Source: a virus (Duplodnaviria; Caudoviricetes). Taken from it: 64,000 bases of DNA. The notes under the pieces were generated by a model. The model did not search any database. It was not told the DNA's origin and worked only from the letters and a program-made list of their open reading frames with translations. Location of the stretch: positions 1 to 64,000 of the IMG/VR virus record IMGVR_UViG_3300020049_013434. The stretch is one strand, 5' to 3'. Each line of letters opens with the position of its first letter. Position 1 is the first letter of the stretch. Below are positions 10,263-40,711 of the stretch, in pieces. Made by a program: the position numbers and the translations under genes.

Positions 10263-10329
10263 AACCTACAACCGCCCACGATATAGCCAGGTAATCCCCC
10301 GACTGGCACCCCACTTTCCTCTCCTCGAA

Positions 10330-10367: not shown

Positions 10368-10408
10368 CCCACTTGTCAGTCAATTGTCTGCAAAAGAAGG
10401 GATATGTT

Positions 10409-11033: not shown

Positions 11034-11048
11034 AACGAGTCTAAAACT

Positions 11049-19159: not shown

Positions 19160-20384
19160 CGACAGATCCTTCTAGTGGAATTGAAACATTCTCAACCCCA
19201 TCCGAAAACTCAATTGAATATTGCGTAATCGTCGCCTTTACCGTCGTATTGCGATAGAAAGCGGCGATTGTATCACCGTACTTGTACTCGCGTCCAAAGC
19301 GAAACTCGTCGCTTTGAGAAATGTCGCCGCCAACCGTAACCTTAGCGCGACGGTTACTGAGCTCCGCCTTAGCAGCCTGAATCATGGCGTCATCAGTAAA
19401 AGCTTCGCCCGCGTCAACAAAGGTCTCGATCGGATAGAACGGACTGCGCAGAATACTTGTGCCGTCTGCTACCCCGCCCATGAGCCGTAGGTCTCCCTGC
19501 CCGGCGCCGCCGACATGCACCCAGTTCGCCATTTCACTGTAGTTCTTATGCAGTCTGGCGTTCTTCATGGTGCCCCAGTATGGACTAAGAACGACGCCGT
19601 CGCTGAGGTCAGCCCCGCGATCGTCGAGCCACACCCTGAACTCAAAGCTACCAACTGCCGAGGCGTCGCCGGCATAGTAGAGCAGGTCAAAGGATACCTT
19701 CACGCCGTCAGCGGCAGCCGCGTCCGCAATGCGCTTCATGGCTTCGAGCCCACTCACCCACGCTACGTCAGCCTCAACAACAGGACCCTGCTCGCCGTCC
19801 GGCGCAACCGTGACTCCGCTAAACGAGTTGAGAGGCATTGCTCTTTGTGAGGCGGCGGGCGTGAAGTTCTGATCGCCAACCACGATCGAGTTCGTGACGG
19901 AGGGAGAAGGCGTCGTGAAGGCGTCGACTAGGGTGCCTTCCGTGTCGTCGCCAAAGTTCTCGCGCCAGATTTCGTAGATTGCTGTGTCAGCCGGCGCCGT
20001 CTTATAGCTCGGCACATTTGCACCCGTGTTGGCGCTGCCAAAGGCGGGCCAGGCAACGACGTGCCGAGCTAACAAGCCGGTCGTGTCGTGCCCACGCACG
20101 GTCAATGTCTCTTTGCCGTCGTCGTCGAGGTTGTACTCAATCTCGCGCACGAACCAACAGGTTTCGTCAATCAGTTGCCAGCTTCTGCCGTCAATACTGC
20201 GCCAGATCTCCACAATGTGATCCTCGCCAAAGACGGCGTCCTCGTAGTCAGCCGGCACTGTGACCTCGAAGGCGCCAGGGGCATTCTCTGTGCGCGAGAT
20301 TGACAGTGACAGGACGTCGGGAATGGACGACGCGATTGGTAGACCCTGTGGCGTAAAGACACGTAGCTCGTAATAGGTAATCAA
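19152..20384 (-). CDS. siphovirus Tal/hub protein (ReqiPepy6 gp37-like)
   Basis: RTENAPGAFEV, VGGAGQGDLR, ETFVDA, FGREYKYGD; lies after Dit. Confidence 0.75.
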   Translation of the reverse strand: MITYYELRVFTPQGLPIASSIPDVLSLSISRTENAPGAFEVTVPADYEDAVFGEDHIVEIWRSIDGRSWQLIDETCWFVREIEYNLDDDGKETLTVRGHDTTGLLARHVVAWPAFGSANTGANVPSYKTAPADTAIYEIWRENFGDDTEGTLVDAFTTPSPSVTNSIVVGDQNFTPAASQRAMPLNSFSGVTVAPDGEQGPVVEADVAWVSGLEAMKRIADAAAADGVKVSFDLLYYAGDASAVGSFEFRVWLDDRGADLSDGVVLSPYWGTMKNARLHKNYSEMANWVHVGGAGQGDLRLMGGVADGTSILRSPFYPIETFVDAGEAFTDDAMIQAAKAELSNRRAKVTVGGDISQSDEFRFGREYKYGDTIAAFYRNTTVKATITQYSIEFSDGVENVSIPLEGSVDG

Positions 20385-20584
20385 AATTTCACCTGAAAGC
20401 TCATGATTGAAAAGGCGACAATGAGCCAGACAAAAAACGACATGACGACGAGAGACGCCAGCCCAAGAACAATCTTCACTGCGTTGCTCTCTATGTCCCT
20501 AAGGCTGAACACGATCGCGCCAAAAAGAATGGCTGGTATTAGACACGGAATGGTAGCGAGAGCGAGCTGAATGATCACTGGCAA
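20381..20584 (-). CDS. small 2-TM protein
   Basis: 67 aa, two hydrophobic helices, overlaps both neighbours. Confidence 0.5.
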   Translation of the reverse strand: MPVIIQLALATIPCLIPAILFGAIVFSLRDIESNAVKIVLGLASLVVMSFFVWLIVAFSIMSFQVKF

Positions 20585-26400: not shown

Positions 26401-29400
26401 TCGAAGGCGGTCTTGGCGTCGGTCATAGCGGTGTTTACTTTGTTCTTGATCTCGTCCAGGGCGCCGCCGATCTTACCCTTCGCCTCTTCAATCTTCTGCC
26501 CAGCCTCTTGCGCCTGCAAGCCAATGTTGAGTGGACCGTTGTCCTTCTTCTTGGCTGCCTGCTCCTGCTCGCGCTTCCACTGATCTTCCAGTTGCACAAT
26601 CTTGGTCAGCGTCTCGTAGTACTCAACGCTACCTTCGTCGTACTTCTTGAGCTCCTCGCGCATGAGCGCAATCTTGCCTGGCGTGTCAGCGATCTGCATT
26701 TTGTAGGCGAGAATGGCGTCGTTCAGGCGGTCCTGCGACTTCTTTGCTGCATCAGTCGCGGAAGCAGAGGCGTTCATGGAGCTTGTGCGCGCCTCGGTCA
26801 ACGTCTTCAGGGCGTCGAACTCAATCTTGTAGCGCGCCTCGGTAACGCCAAGCACCTCCTGCGTCTTGTCAACCTCCTTTTGCAAGGCGTTGATCTTGAC
26901 CTGCATAATGCCCGTCGTGCGTTCCTTCTCGCTATCCAGGGCGCTCTTGCGCTGCTCGGCAGCTAGCTTCTGCACCTTCAGTCCGGCCGTCGTCTGCTGC
27001 TTCTCTGTGGCGAAACGATTGCGTGTGACCGCCATGAGCTCTTCTTGTTGCGAGCTAACGTCCATGGCATTGAGCTGAGCGTCGAGGGTAGCAATCTCGT
27101 CGTTGACGCTTTTGAGCTGAGCGTCGTAGCCTTCGGTCGCCGCCGTCAGTTCGTTCTGTGCCTTAGCAAGCTTGCTCTCCGCCGCCGCTGCATTTAACTG
27201 CGCTTCGACCATGCGCCCAATCTCTTCGGCGACCTCGTCAAAGCGATCAACGGCGTCGTCCAGCCCCACCATGACCGAACCCATGTCGAAGGTGCCGGTC
27301 TGCCCCATGCTGCTAATGGCGACGGCAATCGCTGAATTAATCTTGCCGAGCTCAGTGGTGTCAATATTCTCGCCAATGCTCTCGAAGGCGGTTGTCACGC
27401 TATCGCTGATACTGTTGAGTGTAGTGAAGTCAGCCTGCGTCCAGCCCTCCAACCAGGCGTCAGCGGCGCCCTTGCCCCAGACGGTCAGATCGGGCAGAAG
27501 CTTGGGCGGCGAACCAGGCATTAACCAGGTCGCCATCACGTCGCCCAGGTAGAAGAGTGCGTCCAGGATACTGTTCATGGCGCTCATGAAGCCGTCTGCC
27601 AGGGAAGTCGCGAGGTTAGCGCCCCAAGAGATCATGTCGCTTGCCAATTGCGGCAAAACCTTCATGACGCCGATCGAGACTTGCCCAATGGCATCCAGAA
27701 TCGAGAAGAAGCTACTGCGCCAGCGATTGGTCGAGCCGGACAGCTCGCCCTCTGCCCTTTTGGTTTCGCCCATGAGCAGCCCAAGGAAGTCAAGCGCTAT
27801 GCTAACGACCTCGGTGACAATCGTGCGGAAGCCCATCCAGTCGCGCTGCCAAGCAATCGCTAAGCCCGCGCTGGCAACCGTGTAAAGACCGTACCAGGAA
27901 ATTAGCCCGGACAACGCAGCGCCGAGCGCCATAACCGCAGGCACCGCCAGGGACCACAGAATCGCCCACACGGTGTCCGTCGCCAGGAAGAGGGCAGTGT
28001 GCTTAATGAAGTCAAGAATGACCGGATTGACCGCCTCTATGGCTGACTGGACAAGCCCAAAAGCAAAGCCGATCCAGTAAATAATCGTCTCCATAACGTC
28101 GGCGACGGTCTCACCCATTTGGCGAATGTTCGCCATGAGCTCTTCGCTCTGCAGAGACTCTGCTAGCCCGGACATCATGGGACCAAAGACTTGCTCGAAG
28201 ATTGGCGTACTGAATTCCCTGATCACGCGCGCCTTTAGATCGCTCAATGTATTCGCCAGGCCGCGAGCGGTTTGCGACGCCCTCTCTGCTGCCCCCTCTG
28301 TCCTTTTTACAAGGTAGTCCGCTATTGCCGCAATCGCCTCTGGCGCTTCAAGTATCCCTCCCTGCGAAAAGAAGTCGTTTAGCTCTGTGAGAGATTTTCC
28401 AGTCAACTGCGATAGCTGGCGCATGACGGGGACGCCCGCGGCAGCGAATTGCAGAACTTCCTGTCCAGATAGCTTGCCCTTGACCATTACGTCGCTAAAA
28501 GCTTTGGACAGGAGGACCGTACTTTCGTTTGTGAGACCAAGGCCAGTTCCGGCATCGATAATGACCTGGGTCATTTCCTTCATTTCGTCGGTCAGCATGC
28601 CGCCGACCTGGAGGAATCGGACAATCTTACTAATATCGTCTTGCCCAAACGGAGACAAAATAGCAAGTTTCTCTGTCCATGTAAACAGTTCTTCCGCTTG
28701 CTTTGCCGCCTCTTTTTCTGCGGCAGCAAGTGACTCAGCTTGCCCTGTCCTAAACAGCTCGTCTGATATAGAGGAGGTAAACTGAGTCACTGTCGCCTGC
28801 TGATCGCCGATGATCGTAAATGCTTCACCAATCATGCCACGCACGGTGTTCATGGCGCTGCTGACAATGTTGATAAAATTGAAGCCGAAGCTGACCTTAA
28901 ACGCGTTCGTCAGTGACTGGGCGATATTCTCGCCGAGCCGGGCCGTCATGCTGTCGGCGCCCCAGATTTGATTGGCGATATTCTTGAAGGTGCCGAGCAG
29001 TCCGCGCGCCGGTACGTTCGCCTTGTCGATAGAGCTCGCCAGCTTGTCGGCAGCGCCAGTCGCAGCGTTAATTCCAGCGGCTGTTCCCGTGTCTTCCTGT
29101 GGCTTTTTTCTAAAGAGCGACATAGCGCCGGAGGCTGCGGCTGATACACCACCAGCAATGGCACGTCCGGCACCCGACGTGACTGCGCCAATGGCGTCGA
29201 TCATGCGCCGGATAATGCCTGTCGATTTCTCTGCCTCTATACCGACACTGCGTACCGCCCTCTGCGCGCCATCGCTTTTCATGCCGCCGAATATGCGCTG
29301 CAGCGTGTATAGGGGAGCGAGATAGTAGTCGATAATCGTCTTGCCACGCGATAGGACATTGAGGAAGGCGTTCCAACGCGTCGTGCCGCGATTGACCGCC

Positions 29401-31136
29401 TCCTCCAGACTAAAGAAAGTCGAGGCGAGCTTCTTTAGCATTTCGTTGTCGCCCTCGACGCTGCGCTGTAGGACGCCGGTTGCAAAGTCCTCCGGCGAGA
29501 TATTCTCGGTCATGAGCTTTCTTCGTCTGACCGCACCCTCCAGGGACAAGCGTTCCATTGTCTCGTTGATAGCGACCGTTTCGCGCCGTGTGTCTTCGTG
29601 GAGTCTACGCAGGGCCTTAATGCTCTCGCCTGCGCCCATTTCAGCCGAGCGCGCCATGATGTCTTGGTAGCGTTGGCGCTCGCGCTGCGTGGAGGCGTTT
29701 ATTTGCTGCAGAACGGTCTCGTTGTCTCTGGCTAAGAACGAGACGCCGGCCATACTGCGCGTGCGCGCCAACTCCGTGGCTTCCATGAAGTCGTTCATGG
29801 AGCGCGCTTCCTTGGCGAAGCGATCGTCTAACCCGAAGCGATTCGCCTTCGAGCTTTCCGTCACCAAGGACGACAGTTGCGTATTGAGGCGCGTAATGGC
29901 GCGCGCCAGATTGTCAGCCTCCTGGGCATCCTTCGCCATCACGGGCATGCCCTTGCGCGATTCAAGGCTAGAGAGAACTGCACTGAGCTCGCGATAGCGT
30001 GCCTCAACGTTCTCGATCATGTTGATCTGCTGCTGGTTGTCGAGGTTTGCGCCTTTGACGGAAGCCGTCTGCGACGTGCGCAGATTCTCTAGGCGGTTGC
30101 GCAGATTGTCGATCTGGTTGGCGTATCCTTGCGTGCCAGCTTCGTTTCTGCTGCGAATAGTGAGCGAGTCGCCCATAGAACGATTGAGCTCGCCAACCGC
30201 CTTCGCCAACTGATTAGTTTGCGCTATGGACTCTGGCGTGACAACGCCCGTGTTGCGCACCTCGTCAAGCTTTTTCTTGTATTCGTCCAGGCGCATATTG
30301 GCGTCGCGGCTGAATTCCAGCTTGGCGGTTGGCTCCATGGTTGACGTTTTGACACGCGAAGATATGTTGCTCTGGGCACGTTCCAGCGCACGCTCTACGC
30401 GCTTAATCGCCATCTCCATATCGCGCTCGACATTCTGCGCCGCCTTGCCCGTGTTGCTGGTCTGCGCCTTGGCGATACGATCGAAGTCGCGCTGGTACTG
30501 ATCCGCCATCTTCGTGACGCGCTTGCCCATGTCCTCGGCTTGATCGATCATTGACGGGTCGATAATGGTTCGCTTGCGACCGAGCGATTGCAGAGATTCG
30601 TCGAGGACGCCCAGGCGCGCCCGCAAATTCTCGAAGGTCTGCGCAGCCTGTTGATTGCCGGACATAGTGGACAGACGGGCGTCTGCCTCCCTGAGCACAT
30701 CTTCGATCACGCGCCGAGAAGCGCCGACCTGTTCCTTTAGCTGACTCTTTAGGGCGCTTATATCAGGACCCGCGGGAACGATTGGCTTGGCAGCCAGTGC
30801 GGCATTTTGCGCCTGTAGATCCTTGAGCTCCTGGCGGAGCTCCTTGACTTCCTGCGTGGTCGTATTGAGCGCTTCAGCCGAAGAGACCGCCATCTTGTTA
30901 ATGGCAGCCTGTGCGGTGTTGCTCTCCTTCTGAATGCCGTCAGCCAAGCCGGCGCCACCCAGTGACTTTTTGATTCGCTCAAGTGTAGCGCCAACGTCAG
31001 AGCCCGCCTTCTTGAGCGTAGGCGCCATCTCGGCAAACTCGCGCAGAATCTCATTGACGCGCTTCATGTGGTCCTCGAAGGACGAGAACCCAAGAACTTC
31101 TACATCTACGCCTAAGCGATCAACTGATTCTGTCAT
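23430..31136 (-). CDS. tape measure protein (2568 aa)
   Basis: long helical Ala-rich protein; tape-measure domain (EKLAILSPF..KGKLSGQEVLQF); hydrophobic segments. Confidence 0.9.
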   Translation of the reverse strand: MTESVDRLGVDVEVLGFSSFEDHMKRVNEILREFAEMAPTLKKAGSDVGATLERIKKSLGGAGLADGIQKESNTAQAAINKMAVSSAEALNTTTQEVKELRQELKDLQAQNAALAAKPIVPAGPDISALKSQLKEQVGASRRVIEDVLREADARLSTMSGNQQAAQTFENLRARLGVLDESLQSLGRKRTIIDPSMIDQAEDMGKRVTKMADQYQRDFDRIAKAQTSNTGKAAQNVERDMEMAIKRVERALERAQSNISSRVKTSTMEPTAKLEFSRDANMRLDEYKKKLDEVRNTGVVTPESIAQTNQLAKAVGELNRSMGDSLTIRSRNEAGTQGYANQIDNLRNRLENLRTSQTASVKGANLDNQQQINMIENVEARYRELSAVLSSLESRKGMPVMAKDAQEADNLARAITRLNTQLSSLVTESSKANRFGLDDRFAKEARSMNDFMEATELARTRSMAGVSFLARDNETVLQQINASTQRERQRYQDIMARSAEMGAGESIKALRRLHEDTRRETVAINETMERLSLEGAVRRRKLMTENISPEDFATGVLQRSVEGDNEMLKKLASTFFSLEEAVNRGTTRWNAFLNVLSRGKTIIDYYLAPLYTLQRIFGGMKSDGAQRAVRSVGIEAEKSTGIIRRMIDAIGAVTSGAGRAIAGGVSAAASGAMSLFRKKPQEDTGTAAGINAATGAADKLASSIDKANVPARGLLGTFKNIANQIWGADSMTARLGENIAQSLTNAFKVSFGFNFINIVSSAMNTVRGMIGEAFTIIGDQQATVTQFTSSISDELFRTGQAESLAAAEKEAAKQAEELFTWTEKLAILSPFGQDDISKIVRFLQVGGMLTDEMKEMTQVIIDAGTGLGLTNESTVLLSKAFSDVMVKGKLSGQEVLQFAAAGVPVMRQLSQLTGKSLTELNDFFSQGGILEAPEAIAAIADYLVKRTEGAAERASQTARGLANTLSDLKARVIREFSTPIFEQVFGPMMSGLAESLQSEELMANIRQMGETVADVMETIIYWIGFAFGLVQSAIEAVNPVILDFIKHTALFLATDTVWAILWSLAVPAVMALGAALSGLISWYGLYTVASAGLAIAWQRDWMGFRTIVTEVVSIALDFLGLLMGETKRAEGELSGSTNRWRSSFFSILDAIGQVSIGVMKVLPQLASDMISWGANLATSLADGFMSAMNSILDALFYLGDVMATWLMPGSPPKLLPDLTVWGKGAADAWLEGWTQADFTTLNSISDSVTTAFESIGENIDTTELGKINSAIAVAISSMGQTGTFDMGSVMVGLDDAVDRFDEVAEEIGRMVEAQLNAAAAESKLAKAQNELTAATEGYDAQLKSVNDEIATLDAQLNAMDVSSQQEELMAVTRNRFATEKQQTTAGLKVQKLAAEQRKSALDSEKERTTGIMQVKINALQKEVDKTQEVLGVTEARYKIEFDALKTLTEARTSSMNASASATDAAKKSQDRLNDAILAYKMQIADTPGKIALMREELKKYDEGSVEYYETLTKIVQLEDQWKREQEQAAKKKDNGPLNIGLQAQEAGQKIEEAKGKIGGALDEIKNKVNTAMTDAKTAFDNAENAWGDFTGAIESGINGEPIQSGATKVNTAVYGIGLSIGIVGVVWQGFKDGFSGTMPAPDASPVETWANTVGGYIGGIWEKAKEVLDNLANFGQKIKDLFDPKSETGAGLQTAVTTELDLLFGGVTFGDMAESMTNFVTAVKDGFMGIVWPSLSDSFTGFKDAVVAGFTEFMAGIGDTIAAGMQLFSKVSSGEAGLGDAAEGVGGMLGGITSAVTGLINSLVGFLAAEFAKIDWMTAGGGIGFLTVNFIAAILDLFGKIKWNIVFSIVFGAASSFLTGLIGGIVAGIATIAWEEKFANVFGGLADAVTGAITGMATTVVNTLAFALNVPTVLLGLKMWELFAGMINSLAGKVNVAIGAINEWLPESLQLGVLPTLTIGLTSDNFTIVNPTSIDVSSAVKFSTEEAAKVLLDPKNAVTIGGEQKILVPAEILSLATDDISKLNLGPTDIIKINGEDGAKLVLDPSQVVKTKEGVFLQVDPSTIIKINTEAPIELSVPVQLTAELQSTVDEIASSVKAEVLPEVNESDKIQASDVVGETTVTFQPEMDWTLIDLALPADKTETVKTSGQNNIGVPLAQGVNAGYQTAIDGVQLSADTQTALDQITTDYSIKSPSQWTNDNIGVPLGEGVMYGFAAALLATDISDSIGQVMEKIKGMFSGATEGGDQSQDQAQGQASGIAQAVTGSLDGLDETVAEIFRNMNVAVNAVMATMTDDLITETEDYVEEGTDIIQDYYDWMIDETTDTKKDVTDLFSQMQTSVVTIVKDTVSKSTTEFGKIKDAFKASAKAAIDAAVQEFKDGAERMEAAIEGVIGEVSQNLLTKFEEQGKKLGKKIADGIVSAFKGSDGNNFITALASAIETAVNKAIENATRNVGAVAPPASGGGSTPTPTPTPTPPGGGLTPRSALQAVTAGTRGTVDNMLDIAKYLAPLQEAGLFGMNTSTSLAATTSPLTGGSTVIVTNNYNIYQTVTPEQAVRVDRNFKIFEAQNRR

Positions 31137-31591
31137 GCTTTCATGGCCGCTTTCACGTTTTCCAAGAACGTATCCAGGCGATTCTGGACGATTGATTTAC
31201 CAAACTCACGCGCCACAATGCCTCTAGCGGCGGCTCTTGCCGGTTCGTAGTCGAAGTAGGCAACTGCCCGATTGCCGCCAGAGGCATTAGAATACAGCGA
31301 TCCTGGACGCGTTCTTGAAACAAAGGAGCGATGCATTACCGCATAGCGTCGATCGGTGCCACGGTCGACGTACATAAAAATATCGGCATTCACACCGCGT
31401 GCATATATGTTAAAGCGGAGATCTTGATCAGAGTTATTCTCGACCGAGAAGTCCACCTTTGTATTCCAGTTGTCGACAACCTTCTCGTAATCTTCGCACA
31501 CAAGGTCGGCTGTCTGTTGGGCGACACGACGCAGACTGGTGACAATCTCGTCTGGATTACGCCGCTTTCCCTGTTTGTACGTTACCTTCAT
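31133..31591 (-). CDS. putative tail completion protein (HK97 gp10-like)
   Basis: YVDRGT..Y, RGIVAREF; tail operon position. Confidence 0.45.
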   Translation of the reverse strand: MKVTYKQGKRRNPDEIVTSLRRVAQQTADLVCEDYEKVVDNWNTKVDFSVENNSDQDLRFNIYARGVNADIFMYVDRGTDRRYAVMHRSFVSRTRPGSLYSNASGGNRAVAYFDYEPARAAARGIVAREFGKSIVQNRLDTFLENVKAAMKA

Positions 31592-32045
31592 TGGCTAGCT
31601 CGACCAATCTGCCACGACGACCGCGTGGCGCCGGCTTGTCCTCAGCCTTGCTCTCAACGCCCATGGCGACGGTGCTTACCGCGGCAATAAATTCCTCATT
31701 GGTCATGCCGACATAGCGAATATAGACCGCTTCCAGATACTCCTGGAAGATCAGGTCGTCAGCAACGACGCCGTACAAATCGGAATGGCGTCGAATCCGT
31801 CCAGGAATTGGATCAGGCGGCAGGGGGCTCATGAGCCGGCAAGAGCACTCGACAATATACATAAGATAGCGCTCGTTGCCACGCCAGACTTCCATGAGGT
31901 CGCGCGGGTTCACGTCCTTGCCCGTCGACAAGCGTTCTGCCTTCTCAGGGTCAAAGATACTGGCCGCACGTAGCATATCCGACTCCGCCATGCGGGTTAC
32001 TTCAACAACAACACCATTGTCTAGTTCAATCGTGGATGGGTTCAT
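31557..32045 (-). CDS. tail assembly chaperone-like protein 2
   Basis: upstream of the TMP; resembles 32042..32794; reachable by a -1 frameshift. Confidence 0.55.
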   Translation of the reverse strand: MNPSTIELDNGVVVEVTRMAESDMLRAASIFDPEKAERLSTGKDVNPRDLMEVWRGNERYLMYIVECSCRLMSPLPPDPIPGRIRRHSDLYGVVADDLIFQEYLEAVYIRYVGMTNEEFIAAVSTVAMGVESKAEDKPAPRGRRGRLVELANEGNVQTGKAA

Positions 32046-32794
32046 TTTGGGCTCTTCCTATTACTATTCTTCTCGGCCTCAGCCTGTTGGGCATCATTGC
32101 GGTGCATGTCAATCAACTTGCGCACCCGATTAATCCCAATGACCTCGACCATAAACCGTTTCTCGTACTTGCCCTGGCGCCAGTCAGCCCAGGACATGCC
32201 TGAATCGATACATGACTCGTACTCGTCTATCGGCGACACGATCTGATAGGTGCCAATTGTGATAGCCTGGCTACCAATGCCCGTGTCGATACTGTAGCGA
32301 GTATGGGCTTCGTCAATGTATTCGCCGTTGCGTAAGATACCGAGCAGCCTGACTGCCTCGCGAATCTCCGCCTCTGTAATTACCGTGGCTGCGATAATGC
32401 GTTCCATATCGACGGAGCCACGCATGCACTCGACCGCCAAGTAGAGCAGCGCCAAGTCGTCCGGGTCGTCGAGATTCAGGTTGTCGATCAGATCCTTAGC
32501 GATACCGTAACGCTTTACCCGCCGAAACCAGGAGTCGTCCTGCGGCAACGGCGTTAGTAACTTGCATCCTAACCGAACCAGCTCAACGCCGACCATCTCC
32601 GATCGTTGCATGGCGACGCGGCGTTGAGCTGCGATATAGTCCGGGTGCATGGGATTGTCCTCCCAGCGGTCCTGCGATTTGATGTACGACTTGGGCACTG
32701 GTGGGTCGGGTATGCGGGCTTGCGCACGGCGCAGCTCAAGTGCCGACACTGTGCGGGTTTCAACCTGCGCACCAGACCCAAGTTCGATAATCAT
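32042..32794 (-). CDS. tail assembly chaperone-like protein 1
   Basis: follows the tail tube genes; ends in C CCA AAA TGA. Confidence 0.6.
   Translation of the reverse strand: MIIELGSGAQVETRTVSALELRRAQARIPDPPVPKSYIKSQDRWEDNPMHPDYIAAQRRVAMQRSEMVGVELVRLGCKLLTPLPQDDSWFRRVKRYGIAKDLIDNLNLDDPDDLALLYLAVECMRGSVDMERIIAATVITEAEIREAVRLLGILRNGEYIDEAHTRYSIDTGIGSQAITIGTYQIVSPIDEYESCIDSGMSWADWRQGKYEKRFMVEVIGINRVRKLIDMHRNDAQQAEAEKNSNRKSPK
32045..32051 (-). other. candidate -1 ribosomal frameshift heptamer C CCA AAA
   Basis: X XXY YYZ in the correct phase just before the stop; the -1 frame enters the next ORF. Confidence 0.5.
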
Positions 32795-32796
32795 GC

Positions 32797-34314
32797 TTAG
32801 CCCGCTGTCCCCAAGACAACCAGAGGGGTATCAGGGTCCGGGTCAACGCCTTCGACGACGCCGTATGCCCACACGAGGTTCGGGTTCTCCTCACAGCAAG
32901 CAACCCCGTTGAATGTGCCCATGTTGCGCATGGCAAGCTGGGAAACGGCGTTGTCGGTATTGGGCTCGTAGACCCAGGTCACACCACCGTCAATGCTGCG
33001 GTACAGAATGCTGCCGGCAATCATCCACATGACATGTTGATTGCTCATGCACAGACCGGCGACAATCGGCGGCGTGCTGGCGTTGTAGCCAGGGAAGCAA
33101 ACGCGAGTCCAGGTCAATCCGGCATCCGCCGTCATCCACAGGTTGCCCGCAGCCCCACCAACGATCCAGTTGTTGGCAGACTTTACGATCACCGTGTTCA
33201 GGTTGGCGTTGACCGGCACCGAAGCCGACTGCGCCAGGCTGCTGCCGAGGCGGTAGACATAGACAGCGCCGGCATTGCCGACCGCCACTACCACACCGTC
33301 GTTGGCGTGCATGCCGTTGAAGGTCACGGTGCCAGCGTCGTCGAGCAGGGTGATACCGCAGCTCGGATCATTGCGATCTGCCGTGCGATACAGTGCGCCG
33401 TCGCTATTGAGAATCAGGGTGGCGCCAATGTTGGCTCCCACGCCGTCCGCAATCGCCTTGACGGTGAAGTTGTAATCGCTCGTGCGCCACAGCCAGGCCG
33501 TGCTAGCGGCAATCGCGCCAGAAGCAATCAGGTCGATATGCGCCCGGCTGATCGAGGTCACGACACCATCGGCGTAGACAACGGTAACACTATTACCAGA
33601 GCAGATAATGTCGAAGGCGCCGACGCCACGATTGGCGGCCGGAATCTGAATGTCGGTCCAGGTCGCGCCGTTGTCCGTGCTGTATTCGATATAGTGGTCG
33701 TCAGTAAAGACATACACTTTGTCGCAGCCACGGGAGGGCGGGCACATGTCGCTGGCGCAGGTCTTGCGTCCGCAAACGGCAATGCCGACAGGCGCACCCT
33801 CTGCGGTCAAGCCAGTCTGGCGCTGGGCATAGATCAGGCGGCTCTTAATCTGGAAGAACTCGCCAATCGACACGTCAATCGTTTCGTTGACGGTGCCGCG
33901 ATCAGCGCTCTGCATAGCCAACACTGGGTCAGTGCCCCAGTTGGTGACATACACATTACGCAAAACCCAGGCGATACTGTACTCGTTGAAGTTATCCAGG
34001 TTGGCGCAGGCGCCCCAGTGGATATGGGCGTCAACAGGACATTCGCCGTCGAACATGTCGCGGAAGAGACTGAGCTCAGTCAGACTCAGGCGACCCGTGA
34101 AGGTCGTAGTCATGCGGCCGATTTCACCGCGGAAGACCCCGATCTCCTTGTACCCTGCCCCATTGGGATTCGGGCACTCAATCTTGTTCACCTCGCCGCC
34201 ATCCTGTGTCAGCCCATCGATACCCACGCAGGCGACATAGACGGCTTCAGCCGTGCCGTCGCCGGGACCGCGGGTCATCAGGAAGAGGCGAGCTCGATCG
34301 TTAGTTGCGATCAT
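32797..34314 (-). CDS. tail tube-like protein with BNR/Asp-box beta-propeller, paralogue 4
   Basis: N-domain of about 165 aa shared with the paralogues; STDNGATW, TADAGLTW, SIDGGVTW. Confidence 0.65.
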   Translation of the reverse strand: MIATNDRARLFLMTRGPGDGTAEAVYVACVGIDGLTQDGGEVNKIECPNPNGAGYKEIGVFRGEIGRMTTTFTGRLSLTELSLFRDMFDGECPVDAHIHWGACANLDNFNEYSIAWVLRNVYVTNWGTDPVLAMQSADRGTVNETIDVSIGEFFQIKSRLIYAQRQTGLTAEGAPVGIAVCGRKTCASDMCPPSRGCDKVYVFTDDHYIEYSTDNGATWTDIQIPAANRGVGAFDIICSGNSVTVVYADGVVTSISRAHIDLIASGAIAASTAWLWRTSDYNFTVKAIADGVGANIGATLILNSDGALYRTADRNDPSCGITLLDDAGTVTFNGMHANDGVVVAVGNAGAVYVYRLGSSLAQSASVPVNANLNTVIVKSANNWIVGGAAGNLWMTADAGLTWTRVCFPGYNASTPPIVAGLCMSNQHVMWMIAGSILYRSIDGGVTWVYEPNTDNAVSQLAMRNMGTFNGVACCEENPNLVWAYGVVEGVDPDPDTPLVVLGTAG

Positions 34315-34326
34315 TGAAAATGCTCC

Positions 34327-35883
34327 TTAACAAATTTGGCTAGACACAAGAATTCCCTTGTCGGTATCGGCAACAAGCTCGCATGCGTGCTGGCAGCCAC
34401 CCTCCGCGCAGTCTTCCGGTGTCGTCAACGTAACTCGCCCAGTCGCTACGAAAACATTTGGATCGTGCGAACAAACCGTCAGGCCGTGCCAAAAGCCCAG
34501 GTCTGGATTCACACCCCAAATATAATCGTCAACCAGGTCCCAAGTCGCTCCGCCGTCAATGGTTCGATACACTCGACAAGGGCTGCGCGTCAAGTAGTAC
34601 CCAACATTTTTGGTCGAGAACTTTATGTCAACAATGGGAGACGCGCTATTGACCACGGTGCGCCAGGTTCGCCCGGCGTCCGTCGTGCAGTGCAGCCCGC
34701 CCCCACAGGTTGCAACAAACCATTCGTCGGAATTGCGCATAACCACAGCGCTGATCTGGCAGGTATCGTCAACACCAGCCAGCGTCAAGCAGTCAATGGT
34801 AGAGATAACGCCATTCCGGTAAGCGCTGATTGAGCCAAGCACGGAGCCGAGCAAGAAGTTGTTCTCGTCGACCATGCTCATGAACTCCCAGAAGCCGGAC
34901 ACGCCCAGCGGCTCCTGCGTAATCGACAGCGAGTCCGTATTGACTGCGGTCAGCGTGCCGCTATCGTCAAGCACCCACAGCTTGCCGCCAGCGATATGTA
35001 CGGCGTTAATCTGGGTGCTAATCTCAATGCGCCGATACTCGCTTAGCTCCCCGTCGTCAAAGTCGCTCAGGGGAATACGGTAGATCGCGCCGGCATGGTC
35101 GTCCGCCTCGTTGCCAATGACAAAGAGCGCCTTGCCACTACAGGCAATATGGAACGAGTGCAGCGGCGCGCTCAGCATGTTGAAGGTCGGTATAGTGAAG
35201 GCGTAGTCGCGCCACACAATGCCACCGTCTGTCGAGCGCATAATGGTAATGTTGTTTCCGTTGAAATCCGGATCGCCATTGAAGCGCCAGGCGTAGAATG
35301 TACTGCAAGGCACCAGGCAGTCCGTGGCGCAGCCTTCTGGGCATGTGGTGACCGCAGCCACCACGCCCTGCTGCGTCTGCCCTCTCGCCACTTCCAAGAG
35401 CTTCACGCAGAAGACTTCGTAGATATTAGCCGCCGCCAGATTCACCGTTTCCATGACCGGTGCGGTTTCTCCGCTATTGAGTGCGCCCAGGTTATCGACG
35501 TTGTAGCCGCTGAAGGTAGCGTCCTCGATAATGATTGCTGACTCGTAGCTGCCGAAGTCACTCAGATCAACACAGGTCCCGAAGTGGACCTGCACGTCGA
35601 TTGGCGTCTTGCGGCGTGAAAGCCGTTGTAGTACAGAGCGAGCGCCAAGGATCTTGTAGCCGGCCAGGCTCGTGTTCCAGGGTGACTCGTCGCCGCGGTA
35701 GGAATCCACTTGCTCAAACTCGCCGCCAATGTCGCCAGGGCAGTAGATTGGGGTGACTTCGCCGAAGCTCTTATCGACGCCACCCATTTTCATACAGTTG
35801 TAATACACATATTCCCGGCCGCAACCGGCGCCCTTCTCAGCGATAAAGACACGGGCGTTGCTATTGAGCAGAATGTTATCCAT
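34327..35883 (-). CDS. tail tube-like protein with BNR beta-propeller, paralogue 3
   Basis: LLNSNARVFIA..GAGCG; STDGGIVW, TTDAGRTW, TIDGGATW. Confidence 0.65.
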   Translation of the reverse strand: MDNILLNSNARVFIAEKGAGCGREYVYYNCMKMGGVDKSFGEVTPIYCPGDIGGEFEQVDSYRGDESPWNTSLAGYKILGARSVLQRLSRRKTPIDVQVHFGTCVDLSDFGSYESAIIIEDATFSGYNVDNLGALNSGETAPVMETVNLAAANIYEVFCVKLLEVARGQTQQGVVAAVTTCPEGCATDCLVPCSTFYAWRFNGDPDFNGNNITIMRSTDGGIVWRDYAFTIPTFNMLSAPLHSFHIACSGKALFVIGNEADDHAGAIYRIPLSDFDDGELSEYRRIEISTQINAVHIAGGKLWVLDDSGTLTAVNTDSLSITQEPLGVSGFWEFMSMVDENNFLLGSVLGSISAYRNGVISTIDCLTLAGVDDTCQISAVVMRNSDEWFVATCGGGLHCTTDAGRTWRTVVNSASPIVDIKFSTKNVGYYLTRSPCRVYRTIDGGATWDLVDDYIWGVNPDLGFWHGLTVCSHDPNVFVATGRVTLTTPEDCAEGGCQHACELVADTDKGILVSSQIC

Positions 35884-37433
35884 TAGATCCCCGTCAAAAT
35901 AAAGCCGTCGATACCGACCAGAGTCATTTCAAGCGCCAGTCCATGTAGGGTTGAGTTCGCTGCCGTGTAGCCAACCGCAACAAAGGTGGTCGGCTCCTCC
36001 GGGCAGACGGCTAAGTCATGCATGACTGAGTACTGGGTCAGGCTCGCTGCGTCATCGTTCATTTGCTCCCACTCGGCGCCACCGTCTGACGTGACCCAGA
36101 TCTCGCCAGGATTGCGCAGCGTGATATAGCCACGATTTTTGGCTGGGAAGCGAATGCTGCGCACCGATCCTTCGCCGCGGGAGAACGAGCGAGCCCAGGT
36201 CAACCCGGCGTTGCGCGTGCAGTAGACGTCGCCCTCGTCCGTGCCGACCATCCAGTCAGTCAACGTCTTCATGGCGACGGCAGTAATATCGATTGACAGC
36301 GTGCCGTCCGGCGTAACAACAGGCACCTGTCGCAGTCCCTCGCCAGCCTTGCGGTGAGCCAAGGTGCCCGTCGCACCACCGACAATCAGGTTGTCGCGGT
36401 CAACGCCGTCAATGTCGTTCCACTGATTCGAGAACAGCACGTCGTCTTCAACCAGATTAACCGCCAGGTTCTGCGGGTTGAACCAGAACACCTTGCCGTT
36501 CTCCGTCGCTGCATACACGCGTCCGCCAATCTCGTGCAGTCTGGTTATGGTCACGCCGGTCGACAATAGGTTAAAAGAGACGACCGGTTCGCTATTGAGC
36601 GCCGTCACAGGAATGGACATGACTGTGCCATTACCACTGGCGTTGTTGTTCATACAAAAGACCAGGTGGTCGCCCGCGGCCGCCATCCAGAACGAATTAA
36701 TCAGCTCGCCGGAGTTCGGAAAGCCGCCTGGCAGCTCATGGCGGGTCCAGGTTAATCCACCGTCTACGCTCGCCAATATATATAGGTGATCATAGGCGTC
36801 GTTGTTGGTGTAGCTATAGGGCAACTGCAGGGCGTAGAAGTTCTTACCAAACTCGCGCCCGGTTTCCCAGTTGTAGTAGCTGTGAGCAACGCCCACGATT
36901 TGCCCACCAGCCGGCGCCACATTGCTGCCGACGCGCGCCAGCTCAACGGCGAATAGCTCGTAGACCCGTGCGGCCGTGATATTAATGGTCTCCATAATGG
37001 GCGCTGTCTCACCGCTATTCAGGGCGCCCAGGCTATCGGCGGAGTAGTTGTTGACATCCACGTCCTCAAAGACCAGGGCTGTCTCGTACTGCCCAAAGTC
37101 GCTCAGATTGGCACAGCTCCCAAAGTGAAGCTGCAGATCAAAGATTTGGCGGTTGCTATACAGGCGGTGCAACAGTGACGGCGTGTTTGCCGGCTTGTAA
37201 CCCATGATTGAACTCGACCATGGCTCTTGCTGCTCGCGAATCACCGCTATCTGCCTGTTTCGTCCGGGTCGACTACGGTCGGGCAGGTAAATCGGCGACA
37301 GGTCAGCCCCGGCTTGCTCCAGGTTGCCCATCTTGCCGCAGGCATAATACGCATATTCATCGCCGCACCCGGCGCCTTCCTCGGCGACGAATATGCGGGA
37401 GTTGCTATTGAGCAGGAATGTGTTCTCAGCCAT
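35883..37433 (-). CDS. tail tube-like protein with BNR beta-propeller, paralogue 2
   Basis: LLNSNSRIFVA..GAGCG; SVDGGLTW, TRNAGLTW, TSDGGAEW. Confidence 0.65.
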   Translation of the reverse strand: MAENTFLLNSNSRIFVAEEGAGCGDEYAYYACGKMGNLEQAGADLSPIYLPDRSRPGRNRQIAVIREQQEPWSSSIMGYKPANTPSLLHRLYSNRQIFDLQLHFGSCANLSDFGQYETALVFEDVDVNNYSADSLGALNSGETAPIMETINITAARVYELFAVELARVGSNVAPAGGQIVGVAHSYYNWETGREFGKNFYALQLPYSYTNNDAYDHLYILASVDGGLTWTRHELPGGFPNSGELINSFWMAAAGDHLVFCMNNNASGNGTVMSIPVTALNSEPVVSFNLLSTGVTITRLHEIGGRVYAATENGKVFWFNPQNLAVNLVEDDVLFSNQWNDIDGVDRDNLIVGGATGTLAHRKAGEGLRQVPVVTPDGTLSIDITAVAMKTLTDWMVGTDEGDVYCTRNAGLTWARSFSRGEGSVRSIRFPAKNRGYITLRNPGEIWVTSDGGAEWEQMNDDAASLTQYSVMHDLAVCPEEPTTFVAVGYTAANSTLHGLALEMTLVGIDGFILTGI

Positions 37434-38962
37434 TAGTCCCCAATAATCACAAAGCCTGACAGGTCACCATAGGACACCGCAGTTTCAGACGCGTAGTAAG
37501 CGCTCTCGTCGTCTGCCGTATGTCCAACCGCCACAAAGATCGTTGGGTCAAGTGGGCAGGCGACAAAGTCCTTCATGAGTGAGTAGGTCGATAAGCCCGT
37601 CGTCACTGCCTCGATCTGGGTCCACTGCGATCCGCCGTCCGAAGTCGTGTAGACGTTGGCAGGGCTGTGTAGCACGATATAGCCCCGGCTGTTGGTCGGG
37701 AAAAGCACACGACGCACAACGGAACCCTGGCTGGTGAAAATCAGACTCCAGGTAACACCAGCGTCACTCGTGCAGTAGACGGCGCCATTCTCCGTCCCAA
37801 TGACCCAGTCGTCCCGCCCCTTCATAGCGACAGCCGTAATGTCGTCGGCAATGGGCGACCCGTCGATATTGATCGGCACCGTGCGCAGACTCGTACCATT
37901 GCGCCGTACTGCTAACGTCCCTGAGTCGCCAACGACTAGGAAGTTGTCGTAGTCTAGTCCGTCAAAGTCATTCCAGCGATTGGTGTACAGTGAGCCGTCC
38001 TCAATATAGTAGACCGCCATGGTTGACGGCCGCACCCAAAAGACCTTGCCGTTTTCAGTAACGCCGTACACGCGAGAGCGCATACGCTTCAGGCGGGTAA
38101 CCATAGCGCCCAGCGTAACCGTGTTGTTATACTCGGTTGTTGCAGCGTCGAGCCTTGTGACCGGAATGCCATACAGGACACCTGTGGCGTCGCCAGACAG
38201 AATGATATGATTATTGGCGACGGCAATGTTGAGCGAGTCGCTGTACTCTTCCGGTATAGCAGCCGGTGCGTCGGTTTCGTGGCGGGTCCAGCTTAGCCCA
38301 CCGTCGTTGCTGGCAAGGATATAAAAGAACGATTCATCCTCGACGAAAGTCAGCGGCAATTGTAGAGCATAGAAGTTCTGGCAAGCCTCAGCGTCGCCGT
38401 TGACACAGTCGTAGGGGCTATAGGCGACGGCCGGCACCTGACCACCCAGGGCAACCTGATTGCCGGCTGCGTGAACCAACCCAACCGTAAACAGTTCGTA
38501 GACGTTGGCGGCGGTTATATTGACTGTCTCCATGACGGGCGCAGTTTCGCTACTATTGAGCGCCCCCAGTCCGTCAATGTTGTAGCTGGAAATCTCGACG
38601 TTCTCGAAGACGAGCGCCTGCTCAAAGTCGGAGAAGTTGCTGAGATCGTTGCATACGCCAAAGTGAACCTGTAGGTCGAACTTGCAGCGTTCGCGCGCCA
38701 GCCGTGCCAGGACAGAAGGCATGCCGGCCGGCTTGTAGCCGGTGATTGTGCTGGTCCAGGCACCGTCGCTTGCCTTCACGACCTGCACCTGGCGGAAGCG
38801 CCCAGCCTTGGACGGATCGGGGCAGTAGATCGGCGTTGTTTCGCCGGCGCTACGGTCGAGACCGCCCATCTTCATACAGGTGTAGTAGTTATAGTGCTTG
38901 CCGCAGCCAGAGCCTGCCGGTGCAATAAAAATACGAGCATGGCTCGTTAGCATATATGCCAT
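37433..38962 (-). CDS. tail tube-like protein with BNR beta-propeller, paralogue 1
   Basis: SHARIFIA..GSGCG; SNDGGLSW, TSDAGVTW, TSDGGSQW. Confidence 0.65.
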   Translation of the reverse strand: MAYMLTSHARIFIAPAGSGCGKHYNYYTCMKMGGLDRSAGETTPIYCPDPSKAGRFRQVQVVKASDGAWTSTITGYKPAGMPSVLARLARERCKFDLQVHFGVCNDLSNFSDFEQALVFENVEISSYNIDGLGALNSSETAPVMETVNITAANVYELFTVGLVHAAGNQVALGGQVPAVAYSPYDCVNGDAEACQNFYALQLPLTFVEDESFFYILASNDGGLSWTRHETDAPAAIPEEYSDSLNIAVANNHIILSGDATGVLYGIPVTRLDAATTEYNNTVTLGAMVTRLKRMRSRVYGVTENGKVFWVRPSTMAVYYIEDGSLYTNRWNDFDGLDYDNFLVVGDSGTLAVRRNGTSLRTVPINIDGSPIADDITAVAMKGRDDWVIGTENGAVYCTSDAGVTWSLIFTSQGSVVRRVLFPTNSRGYIVLHSPANVYTTSDGGSQWTQIEAVTTGLSTYSLMKDFVACPLDPTIFVAVGHTADDESAYYASETAVSYGDLSGFVIIGD

Positions 38963-40344
38963 TAAAACGCCCCCGTCGATACCATGCCGCCTGGCATCAT
39001 ATTCTTAATCTCAAGCGCCTTGCGGAAGGCGTCTACCTCACCCCGTCGTGTGCCGAATGGATTATCTGCCAGTTTCAACGTCAGGAAGTAAGACCCCTCG
39101 TTGCGGTTCGAGTAGTTCATGGTCGCCTGCAGCTCAGCAAAGCGGTCGGTGGTGCGGTCGCAGGTGCACTGGCAGACCGCCTTTGGTAGCCGTGCCGCCG
39201 CCAGCAATGCCACAATCTGCTCAGTCTCACTGCTATCAAAGCAGGTGCTGTCGCAACCGAAATCGCTGGTATAGCCGTGCCAGTAGTAAAGCTTAACAAA
39301 GTCCGGGTCGCGACTACAGGCTTGGCAATTGCCGTCCGTACACCACTGCTCTTCCTCTGCGTTCCATGTGCCACGCACTGCCTGCACAGCGCCTTTGACG
39401 CCGTAAGTATTGCCGACGACGCAGCCAGGGCAATAGCTCAACTGGCAAATGTCACAGGAGCCGCAGGAGCAACCTGGGTTGCCACGCCAGCCAAACTGGG
39501 CTGCGGCTACAGTGCGGTCAAAATAGCGGCGCACCACGACCAGTTCCTCCGGGTAAGTCGCCGGCGAGAGTAGGTCGATAATCGGCGACATGTTGTTGTT
39601 CAGACAGATTCCGCAGTCAGCCGGCTCCTCGTAAAGCTCTGGACGAATGGCTACCCAAGGATCAATCTCAATACTGGCTATGCCGTCCGCAATCTCAATG
39701 CGCGGCGAGTGAATCTTGTAGGCTCGGTCGCAAACGTGACCGACGTGATACACTTCAATCTCGCACTCAAGCACACAGGACTCGACCTCGACTTCAAGCA
39801 AAATGCGCTTCGGGCAGTCCACATTATTCTTGCTCGTATACAGGTCGCCGTTGCGATCGTAGATTTGCACCGGTACTGTGCCGAGCTCGGCGACCGACTG
39901 GCGACCCCAGGCTAAGACCGGCTCGTCATTGATCACGTAGAGCCCATTAGCCCTTCTTGTCTCAGCCCGTACTCGGCTACTGCTAGACGATGGCAGCTCG
40001 CCAAGATAAATGCTGCCGTAGGCGTAGTCACGGGCTGGTCCACAGCCACCGTTATAGGGCAGGATAACGCACTTCTCTTGCGGGTAGATCGGTATGCCCC
40101 AGAAGGCTGCCAAGTCACGCTCGGCTTCGGCGATCGCATTCGCCAGGTCATCGCGCGTAACGACAGACGAACCGGCTTGGTGTGGACCTTGATACCAAAA
40201 CTCATTGCAGCCAGTCATGCAGCCATAGTGGCAGACGGGCTCGAAGGTGGCGCCGTTGAAGGCTACTGGGTTGAGTCCAAAGATCTCGGCAAACCTATCG
40301 AGATCTAATACTTTTGACTTTTTCGAGAAACGACTCCAGGCCAT
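38962..40344 (-). CDS. Cys-rich head-tail adaptor-like protein
   Basis: ATG 40344 with GGAGG; DDLANAIAEAE helix and VKLYYWHGY resemble adaptors; 25 Cys. Confidence 0.5.
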   Translation of the reverse strand: MAWSRFSKKSKVLDLDRFAEIFGLNPVAFNGATFEPVCHYGCMTGCNEFWYQGPHQAGSSVVTRDDLANAIAEAERDLAAFWGIPIYPQEKCVILPYNGGCGPARDYAYGSIYLGELPSSSSSRVRAETRRANGLYVINDEPVLAWGRQSVAELGTVPVQIYDRNGDLYTSKNNVDCPKRILLEVEVESCVLECEIEVYHVGHVCDRAYKIHSPRIEIADGIASIEIDPWVAIRPELYEEPADCGICLNNNMSPIIDLLSPATYPEELVVVRRYFDRTVAAAQFGWRGNPGCSCGSCDICQLSYCPGCVVGNTYGVKGAVQAVRGTWNAEEEQWCTDGNCQACSRDPDFVKLYYWHGYTSDFGCDSTCFDSSETEQIVALLAAARLPKAVCQCTCDRTTDRFAELQATMNYSNRNEGSYFLTLKLADNPFGTRRGEVDAFRKALEIKNMMPGGMVSTGAF

Positions 40345-40711
40345 CCAGGACCTCCACCAAATTGAGCATGAACGTGTACACGCCATAAGCCGCAAAGAAC
40401 TCGGCAACGGTATAGAGAGAGAAGCTGCGCGCCGTCAGCAGGACGGCAATAATATTCGTCCAGATACCCGTGCAGTACATGCACAGGAGCATGAGACCAA
40501 CCTCGGTCGTCGCCACATATTTAGGTATCTCTTCGGGCGGCGTATCAGTCATCGCAATGTAGCGATTCAGTTGCTCGCCCGTTGCCGTATCGCTAGGCAA
40601 AATGCCGGCTAGCTCGCGAATCCGTTCAAGCAGGCGATAGGGTCCGCGCTCGTTAACCAGCAAATGCGCAATGGCATAAGCGACTAGGGCTCGTAGTAAG
40701 ATCATCGCCAT
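40295..40711 (-). CDS. DUF1360-like membrane protein
   Basis: LLVNERGP..LERIR, LLCMYCTGIW; next to the lysin. Confidence 0.6.
   Translation of the reverse strand: MAMILLRALVAYAIAHLLVNERGPYRLLERIRELAGILPSDTATGEQLNRYIAMTDTPPEEIPKYVATTEVGLMLLCMYCTGIWTNIIAVLLTARSFSLYTVAEFFAAYGVYTFMLNLVEVLDGLESFLEKVKSIRSR

Follow-up and report, generated by a model that had tools for sequence, protein, structure and literature searches.

An uncultured wastewater phage with a complete genome of 94,450 bp carries four tightly packed paralogous genes in the slot of the tail-tube gene. Each encodes an N-terminal domain, which in its predicted structure adopts the tail-tube fold, and a C-terminal BNR/Asp-box propeller with seven blades, of the Ycf48 type. 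Rather than being equivalent, the copies represent two ancient types. These are always co-retained in the sampled multi-copy phages, which suggests a tube comprising two or more subunit species. We lean towards the reading that the paralogues are major tail proteins of a long-tailed siphophage and that both types co-assemble into a heteropolymeric tube displaying propeller adhesins. Tube proteins with decorations and phages with more than one tail-tube gene are already known; new here is the N-domain family.

The window, i.e. the whole stretch of DNA that was analysed, comprises 64,000 nucleotides. Four consecutive genes had been claimed in a sequence-only reading and open reading frames were found exactly there, at 32797-38962, all on the minus strand (Table 1). 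Genes A and B as well as genes B and C overlap by one base (TAATG), and a gap of 12 nt separates C from D. Full-length identity to A is 46% for B, 35% for C and 22% for D, the respective values for the N-domain being 52%, 53% and 27%, which bears out the view that the 505-aa copy is the most diverged. The N-domain profile of the family matched every copy with E values of 2e-52 to 5e-69, far beyond chance. Each paralogue yielded a single match with this profile and contains a single tube domain in the full-length predicted model. The motifs quoted earlier for all copies (RxF, GxGCG, PIYCP, HFGxC and LGALNSxETAPxMET) are present in A-C, but are degenerate in D. In paralogue A, the tube domain encompasses residues ~1-162 (38477-38962) and is followed by a Cys-containing linker and the propeller (residues ~196-509). 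Paralogue C possesses 20 cysteines, while B lacks five cysteines that are conserved in the family. In a variant strain from another study, the array is kept without indels. Contigs touching all four genes occur in two wastewater metatranscriptome runs; reading transcription from these RNA-library contigs was set aside, as DNA carry-over is possible.

Table 1. Coordinates of the tube gene array and of the surrounding tail and connector genes in the window.
Feature	Position	Strand	Length	Remarks
Tal-like tail tip protein	19152..20384	-	410 aa	PF14594 Sipho_Gp37, E 3.5e-18; phrog_538
Dit-like distal tail protein	20575..23427	-	950 aa	phrog_33; Rax2, Reg_prop and CBM_4_9 matches
Tape measure protein	23430..31136	-	2568 aa	PF20155, phrog_167
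152-aa protein, possibly neck or tail completion protein	31133..31591	-	152 aa	L002 homologue upstream of tube gene
Second chaperone-like protein	31557..32045	-	162 aa	weak paralogue of the 250-aa protein (E 0.001, one segment)
Tail assembly chaperone-like protein	32042..32794	-	250 aa	equivalent to fused G+T product
Paralogue D, type I (deep clade)	32797..34314	-	505 aa	
Paralogue C, type II, C subgroup	34327..35883	-	518 aa	
Paralogue B, type II	35883..37433	-	516 aa	
Paralogue A, type II tube protein	37433..38962	-	509 aa	
Cys-rich adaptor/head-completion-like connector	38962..40344	-	460 aa	true start is Met22 of a 481-aa ORF
Conserved protein, probably connector component	40295..40711	-	138 aa	homologues in L001, L002, L003, L004, L005

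The predicted structure of the N-domain is a beta-sandwich with a flanking helix, which superposes over most of the domain on the tail tube/Hcp fold, as represented by the N-domain of lambda gpV, SPP1 gp17.1, eCIS tube and Hcp. Inner tube proteins are the top structural matches, covering the whole domain, and entries from baseplate and cap complexes are among the matches as well. Thus, the earlier assignment of the N-domains to tail-tube proteins is upheld by structure comparison of the predicted model. Profile searches against the PDB detected the propeller, never the tube domain, which makes predicted structure the basis of the tube assignment. The N-domain gave no match with Pfam (E up to 1) or PHROGs (E up to 0.1), so it is a separate, previously unannotated metagenomic sequence family with tube fold. 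The family comprises 354 metagenomic cluster representatives (E up to 1e-3; 50% identity clusters), and 131 of the best 150 representatives combine the tube N-domain with a propeller. Searches by tblastn of 50,697 phage records gave no match, neither for copy A nor for a 538-aa capsid-like protein, and no relative turned up among the prophages of 185,579 species genomes.

The claim of a C-terminal propeller with Asp-box repeats was likewise substantiated. The family profile detected Ycf48 (2xbg) and GH74 propellers in the PDB (E 1.8e-23), and the full-length model (pLDDT 94.7, pTM 0.92) matched seven-bladed propellers with TMt values of 0.65-0.73, those of the Ycf48/GH74 type reaching about 0.65-0.69. 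Every paralogue has three Asp-boxes (S/T-x-D-x-G-x-x-W) at equivalent positions, those of paralogue A including SNDGGLSW, TSDAGVTW and TSDGGSQW. Single sequences scored 22-28 bits against the Pfam propeller families PF14870, PF15902 and PF02012, just under the gathering scores of 27-33, and matches to sialidases (GH33) were weak and at Asp-box level (E 4e-4 or worse). Among 138 family members, no polar residue outside the Asp-boxes reaches 75% conservation. As family-wide conservation is confined to Asp-box and structural residues, no conserved active site is apparent from the propeller sequences.

The genes are ordered adaptor-like gene, four tube genes, chaperone-like genes, tape measure, Dit and Tal, and the array indeed fills the slot between the adaptor and the chaperone and tape measure genes. 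The length read earlier for the tape measure protein was correct, and a 69-aa gene (ORF 18950-19159) is, as had been noted, the only one after the Tal-like gene. In all relatives the 138-aa gene precedes the adaptor-like gene; the sole family match of its product is a weak one to DUF1360. For the adaptor-like protein, alignments with the L001, L004 and L005 homologues begin at residue 22 of the 481-aa ORF, and ESM Atlas gave leads, to be taken as such, to HCP/Phage_connect_1. The 250-aa chaperone-like gene is located after the tube genes and ahead of the tape measure gene. Residues 3-147 and 151-247 of its product align with two frames of L005, which overlap each other and lie downstream of the tube gene. 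The 250/163/152-aa gene trio is kept in L007 and L014; for the 152-aa protein there was no family match. Propellers that replace conventional fibres, as had been proposed, would be conceivable; the Dit-like protein carries a CBM_4_9-like domain and a propeller of its own and may itself be the principal receptor binder.

The same succession of head-tail connector genes, array, and chaperone and tape measure genes was found in the window and in relatives. In single-copy relatives, the sole homologue is directly followed by chaperone(s) and tape measure and is the only gene of fitting size between these and the connectors. Profile searches of the complete genome detected no separate true tube gene elsewhere: the family profile gave no match beyond the four genes, and four Pfam tube families (Phage_TTP_1, Phage_tail_2, Phage_tail_3, Phage_TTP_12) gave none at E up to 1. 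One Pfam sheath family also remained without a match at E up to 1; on this result, together with Dit and a tip of the Sipho_Gp37 type, a contractile tail was rejected.

Counting paralogues in related phages, a check proposed along with the sequence-only reading, revealed multiple copies, with a range of 1-4 (four in L001; three in L007, L009, L010, L011 and L013; two in L003 and L014; one in L002, L004, L005 and L006). The first copy of L009 is interrupted, giving two ORFs of 282 and 254 aa. In trees, the single-copy forms branch basally and two deep clades emerge with support of 100 and 99, type I corresponding to copy D and type II to copies A-C. N-domains of type I and type II share 26-29% identity, as compared to ~50% among the type II copies. 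At least one member of each type is present in 9/9 sampled multi-copy phages. Further duplications occurred independently in either type, in type I in L011 and in type II in L013 and the window lineage, where paralogue B is the youngest duplicate (A/B split). The tape measure proteins comprise 2489-3823 aa in those multi-copy phages with a readable one versus 553-1545 aa in single-copy phages. All multi-copy phages trace to one duplication, so that few independent events underlie both the link to long tape measures and the co-retention.

Each of the four orthologue groups (A, B, C and D) is preserved intact between phages differing by 13-50% at the protein level, including at 35-50% divergence, the L001 orthologue of A being 66% identical. 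N-domains are always more similar between orthologues than propellers, with N-domain/propeller identities of 75/61, 61/51, 76/66 and 87/68%. The N-domain of copy D evolves slowest (87% between phages versus 61-76% for the others). Copy D also has its own ribosome-binding site, AAGGAG, in the 12-nt spacer, which is the strongest of the array and conserved at D-type genes of the window lineage; the weaker sites of A-C are located within the preceding gene, and the array operon is translationally coupled. As a proxy for stoichiometry, the strength of these sites was discarded: it is a weak hint, because the energies are near-equal and the pattern fails in L011, L013 and L014. Taken with its slowly evolving N-domain, the strong ribosome-binding site of copy D would also fit a bulk tube made from D alone.

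Each type is kept in every sampled multi-copy relative, which points to a need for both types and to their co-assembly. Three successive duplications would have separated type I (D) from type II, then C from A/B and, recently, A from B. Types I and II would assemble around the 2568-aa tape measure into a single heteropolymeric tube, a candidate arrangement being rings alternating between the two types. Such rings would correspond, without fusion, to the tube proteins of T5 and P74-26, in which the domain is duplicated and fused. The propellers would project from the tail surface and, evolving faster, may supply up to four different binding surfaces, through which the tail would probably adhere reversibly to polysaccharides of the cell surface. 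We infer the presence of all four paralogues in virions, their co-assembly, the ring arrangement and ligand binding. Four paralogues are not evenly divisible into a hexamer, and a fixed ring stoichiometry must therefore treat A, B and C as interchangeable. A predicted complex of three A and three D N-domains scored 0.30 against a mark of 0.32, which is taken neither for nor against co-assembly. Net charges of type I and type II N-domains showed no complementary pattern, all being acidic with means of -8.2 and -6.8. A more specific version is put forward tentatively and may well not hold: an obligately heteromeric tube of types I and II, possibly alternating per ring and with one or both types multiplied, forming a roughly 385-nm tail with up to four propeller adhesins in hundreds of copies.

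Less probable than co-assembly, yet the strongest competitor, is a tube that consists for the most part of a single paralogue (D most likely, or else A), with the others forming minor rings at specific positions, for instance the first rings on Dit or the last under the terminator. Tube-initiator paralogues of contractile systems, i.e. T4 gp48/gp54 and Afp5/Afp7, provide a model. Known systems reuse the tube fold for specialised rings, with which the baseplate and cap rows among the structural matches agree, and both the conserved AAGGAG of D, set against the weaker sites of A-C, and the conservation of its N-domain (87% versus 61-76%) would suit a bulk subunit. However, all copies have the same length and a full propeller, and lineage-specific duplication in both types is unexpected for a single-ring specialist. 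Moreover, siphophage tubes normally begin on Dit itself without initiator paralogues. Rather improbable, in our estimate, is that the paralogues are interchangeable and form homohexameric rings stacked randomly or by segment, with no obligate partner and selection acting only on propeller diversity. The faster divergence of propellers, the repeated independent duplications and the translationally coupled operon would be in accord with this, but it explains neither the retention of both types in 9/9 multi-copy loci nor why type I and II N-domains are only 26-29% identical versus ~50% within type II.

It is very unlikely that the proteins are not tube subunits at all, but tube-fold adhesins or Dit-like baseplate parts, the real tube protein being encoded by an unrecognised small ORF. 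Dit and hub proteins also have the tube fold and small unannotated ORFs remain (135, 138, 152, 163 and 192 aa); against this stand a separate Dit-like gene, inner tube proteins as best structural matches, the homologue as sole suitably sized gene in the slot of single-copy relatives, and the lack of matches to known tube families across the genome. The least credible explanation is that recent, redundant duplicates are decaying without functional significance. The split first copy in L009 and the missing five cysteines of paralogue B could be taken as decay, but orthologue groups of all four copies are intact at 13-50% protein divergence and the array of the variant strain is free of indels.

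Lambda gpV with its Ig-like domain, SPP1 gp17.1/gp17.1* and the major tail protein of JBD30 also combine a tube domain with a C-terminal decoration. There, the decoration is a small Ig or FN3 domain and a single gene, in some cases with an additional frameshift product, suffices, whereas here it is a seven-bladed propeller of ~310 aa on the products of four genes; unlike siphophage major tail proteins, these products belong to no Pfam or PHROG tube family. Duplicated and fused tube domains that form pseudo-hexameric trimers are known from T5 pb6 (PMC5717097) and P74-26 TTP (PMC10034513). The likeness to these would lie in the requirement for two diverged tube domains per ring, for which co-retention speaks here, and in long tails. 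In contrast, types I and II are encoded here by different genes and each protein bears a propeller, a shared ring being hypothetical, and nothing in those phages parallels the division of type II into three genes. As no polypeptide contains two tube domains, the resemblance is a functional, hypothetical one. Paralogous Hcp proteins of Bacteroidales type VI secretion form heterohexamers (Hcp2-Hcp3, PDB 9vne; PMC13035841, PMC13213661); in that secretion system the heteromer is demonstrated and decoration domains are lacking, whereas a virion heteromer is proposed here. Siphophages with more than one major tail protein gene are also found in actinobacteriophage clusters AM, AU, AW, BI, CC, DJ and EL, for which two major tail proteins are annotated and, as far as the accessible parts of the sources go, a propeller is not mentioned (PMC11080557, PMC10652937). 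They have two genes instead of four, and the tblastn search with copy A revealed no sequence relation. Ycf48/HCF136 and GH74-type proteins share seven blades and Asp-boxes with the propellers described here, which differ by their fusion to a tube domain. Since conserved residues are limited to the Asp-box scaffold, a shared ligand or activity cannot be assumed.

To our knowledge, every siphophage tube with a described structure is a homopolymer whose subunit is a single protein or a single fused duplicate, and we know of no arrangement in the tube for the two major tail proteins of the actinobacteriophage clusters. If the tube needs at least two separate paralogues, it poses a new assembly problem, namely that of order and stoichiometry around the tape measure, and a heteromeric tube, if true, would be a natural intermediate in the origin of the fused proteins that form the tubes of T5 and P74-26. 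Recognition of the family, which is large and wholly unannotated, would improve the annotation of many metagenomic phages. With every subunit bearing a propeller twice as large as its tube domain, the whole tail would become an adhesive surface, which bears on how long-tailed phages find their hosts in flocs or biofilms such as wastewater sludge.

The record whose first 64 kb form the window comprises 94,450 bp and carries direct terminal repeats. A profile search of this genome with the N-domain family matched only four tandem genes, A to D, each encoding an N-domain of about 162 aa followed by a propeller. The genes overlap by TAATG at the A/B and B/C junctions, and a 12-nt spacer containing the AAGGAG site of D lies between C and D. 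Overall identity to A amounts to 46% (B), 35% (C) and 22% (D), and over the first 172 residues to 52%, 53% and 27%, respectively. Each copy has three Asp-boxes, at positions equivalent among A–D. The sequence-only reading had described this array as four tail-tube paralogues fused to propellers, and every particular that was checked proved correct, among them the tape measure length of 2568 aa and the presence of a 69-aa ORF behind the tip gene.

The N-domain matched no Pfam or PHROG family, and PDB sequence-profile searches matched only the C-terminal part, not the N-domain. Residues 1–172 of A were modeled by AlphaFold2 with a 150-row alignment (pLDDT 94.6, pTM 0.81). When this model was compared with the PDB by Foldseek, inner tube proteins of extracellular contractile injection systems (eCIS) were retrieved with E-values of 1.5e-6 to 5e-4, a range that also includes phage Sf11, 80alpha, lambda gpV, monocin and Hcp; predicted viral structures again returned tube proteins. 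The tail-tube fold proposed earlier is thus borne out for the modeled domain, lambda gpV being among the matches. A separate true tube gene elsewhere was not detected by sequence methods: a scan of the genome for four Pfam tube families and the sheath family yielded nothing up to E 1, several small ORFs being unannotated.

The full-length model of A (pLDDT 94.7, pTM 0.92) places its C-terminal part among seven-bladed propellers (Ycf48, WD40 proteins; TMt 0.65–0.73), and Ycf48 and GH74 propellers are also recovered by the family profile (E about 1e-23). Among 138 aligned family members, the propeller columns conserved to at least 75% comprise only Asp-box residues, one cysteine and glycines, so nothing points to a conserved catalytic site; judged from this conservation, a putative binding role is more likely than catalysis. 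Cysteines recur in the 138 members at C93 (82%), C104 (96%), C186 (94%), C190 (76%), C194 (70%) and C469 (76%; copy A numbering), which suggests disulfides or a metal site linking the tube domain, the linker and the last propeller blade. B has lost five family-conserved cysteines, and C contains 20 cysteines. Inter-ring disulfides are described for another tube protein (PMC13576161).

With the four N-domains as seeds, an exhaustive profile search recovered 354 cluster representatives at a cutoff of E 1e-3, and the stricter cutoff of 1e-10 left 243; 131 of the 150 best family matches are at least 440 aa long (median 499 aa), i.e. they have the same two-domain architecture. Copies were counted by the family profile in thirteen fetched loci, which represent twelve relatives (the L007 phage contributed a second contig, L008), leaving out L012, whose single copy lies on a contig too short for counting (2.6 kb). 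These counts, suggested as a check by the sequence-only reading, gave one (L002, L004, L005, L006), two (L003, L014), three (L007, L009, L010, L011, L013) or four copies (window; L001, its fourth copy cut by the contig end). In single-copy phages, the tube gene is directly followed by the chaperone gene(s) and the tape measure gene, in L006 then also by Dit, and its place is the canonical major tail protein position. The first copy of L009, an 89-kb JGI contig, is split at 10001–11558 into ORFs of 282 and 254 aa, reflecting either a sequencing frameshift or a decaying copy.

Concordant results were obtained with an IQ-TREE quick tree (65 rows) and FastTree (70 rows). Single-copy proteins form the basal branches, and the remainder forms two deep clades (support 100 and 99). 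Type I comprises D, its orthologues (L001 copy 4; copy 3 of L007, L009 and L010), L014 copy 2, L013 copy 1, L003 copy 1 and L011 copies 2 and 3. Type II comprises A, B and C with their orthologues, L014 copy 1, L013 copies 2 and 3, L003 copy 2 and L011 copy 1. Both types are present in nine of nine multi-copy phages. Within type II of the window lineage C stands apart from A/B, which are split in the window and L001 only; independent duplications occurred in type II of L013 and type I of L011. N-domain identity is 26–29% between the types and about 50% among type II copies. Orthologues are intact across 13–50% protein divergence, and their conservation is always higher in the N-domain than in the propeller (A 75/61, B 61/51, C 76/66, D 87/68%).

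Tape measures have 553 (L005), 653 (L004) and 1545 aa (L006) in single-copy phages and 2489 (L007), 2519 (L014), 2568 (window), 3605 (open frame, L003 genome) and 3823 aa (L013) in multi-copy phages, a link that counts as one evolutionary association rather than several, since the multi-copy phages share one ancestral duplication. The long tape measure accompanied by multiplied tube genes parallels phages T5 and P74-26, whose tube proteins carry ancient duplicated and fused tube domains and form pseudo-hexameric trimers (PMC10034513). Downstream of their tube genes, L003 and L011 carry spike or fibre genes (beta-helix, PKD, Peptidase_G2, pre-neck-appendage-like, Peptidase_S74). The tape measure frame of L003, whose genome is complete, is reached about 13 kb further downstream, and hence tube and tape measure genes are sometimes non-adjacent in this group.

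Features of the window, in order of transcription
Feature	Position	Strand	Remarks
871-aa ORF	50322-52937	minus	LAGLIDADG endonuclease and intein splicing domains (PF03161, PF14890)
502-aa protein	41985-43493	minus	Ig/FN3-like structural neighbours
GH108 endolysin-like	40702-41346	minus	PF05838, E 2.3e-19
138-aa protein			upstream of tube genes
Cys-rich protein, 460 aa	38962-40407	minus	coordinates are those of the 481-aa ORF; start probably Met22 (40344)
A, 509 aa	37433-38962	minus
B, 516 aa	35883-37433	minus
C, 518 aa	34327-35883	minus
D, 505 aa	32797-34314	minus
Chaperone-like, 250 and 162 aa	31557-32794	minus	downstream of tube genes
152-aa protein			after chaperone-like genes
Tape measure, 2568 aa			after 152-aa gene; PF20155, phrog_167
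Dit-like, 950 aa	20575-23427	minus	after tape measure; CBM and propeller
Tip protein, 410 aa			after Dit-like gene; Sipho_Gp37 type

The Cys-rich and 138-aa proteins lie upstream of the tube genes in all relatives. The stop codon of the 460-aa gene overlaps the start of A (TAATG), and the nearest language-model and structure neighbours of its product are head-completion or adaptor proteins, which we take as a lead only. Tail chaperones are usually encoded as a frameshift pair, in place of which the window seems to have two separate genes. The 250-aa protein aligns with two overlapping reading frames of single-copy relative L005 (11531–12311) and thus corresponds to G and T in fused form; the 162-aa protein is weakly paralogous to the N-part of the 250-aa protein. 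A 250/163/152-aa trio also occurs in L007 and L014, and single-copy relatives have proteins of about 180 and 86 aa. In the Dit-like protein, a CBM_4_9-like domain (residues 48–140) and a propeller (Rax2, Reg_prop and DUF5122 matches) indicate that the tail tip likewise bears putative glycan binders. The propellers of A–D might stand in for conventional fibres, as the sequence-only reading proposed: the tip gene has no fibre gene behind it, but the Dit-like protein has a CBM and a propeller of its own. The GH108 gene is situated in the head-tail connector block, flanked by the 135-aa and 138-aa genes; close relative L001 lacks it at the corresponding place, and in L009 and L010 it is about 2 kb further upstream. 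Divergence is much faster in the 502-aa protein than in the proteins around it (36% identity to L001 versus 58–68% for adjacent genes); it may decorate the head or neck, or may form a fibre.

Ten wastewater metagenome runs contain at least half of the sampled words of the stretch, and rows containing any part of it come from ten studies. In a variant strain from another study, the array is preserved and shows no indels. Among cultured phages, no homologue was detectable in a collection of 50,697 records. Tube proteins are well known to carry decoration domains. A full-text literature search found no account of tube proteins bearing a BNR propeller, of a siphophage with four tube paralogues or of a siphophage tube in which two types are always paired; several actinobacteriophage clusters are annotated with two major tail protein genes (PMC11080557, PMC10652937).

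Taken together, A–D are securely identified as major tail proteins. They belong to a new sequence family, bear a large propeller as decoration and have multiplied to four genes. None of the nine descendants sampled has lost either type, each orthologue group has persisted over long divergence and the architecture is complete in every copy, from which we infer that both ancient types would be required together in one tube. In type VI secretion of Bacteroidales, paralogous proteins of the tube fold do assemble into mixed rings (PMC13035841), and one such ring (9vne) is among the structural matches listed for the N-domain. Candidate arrangements of a tube requiring both types are that I and II alternate within a ring, form separate rings or take special positions. 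The main rival account, in which D builds the bulk of the tube and the other copies are minor, draws on the stronger ribosome-binding site and the slower evolution of D.
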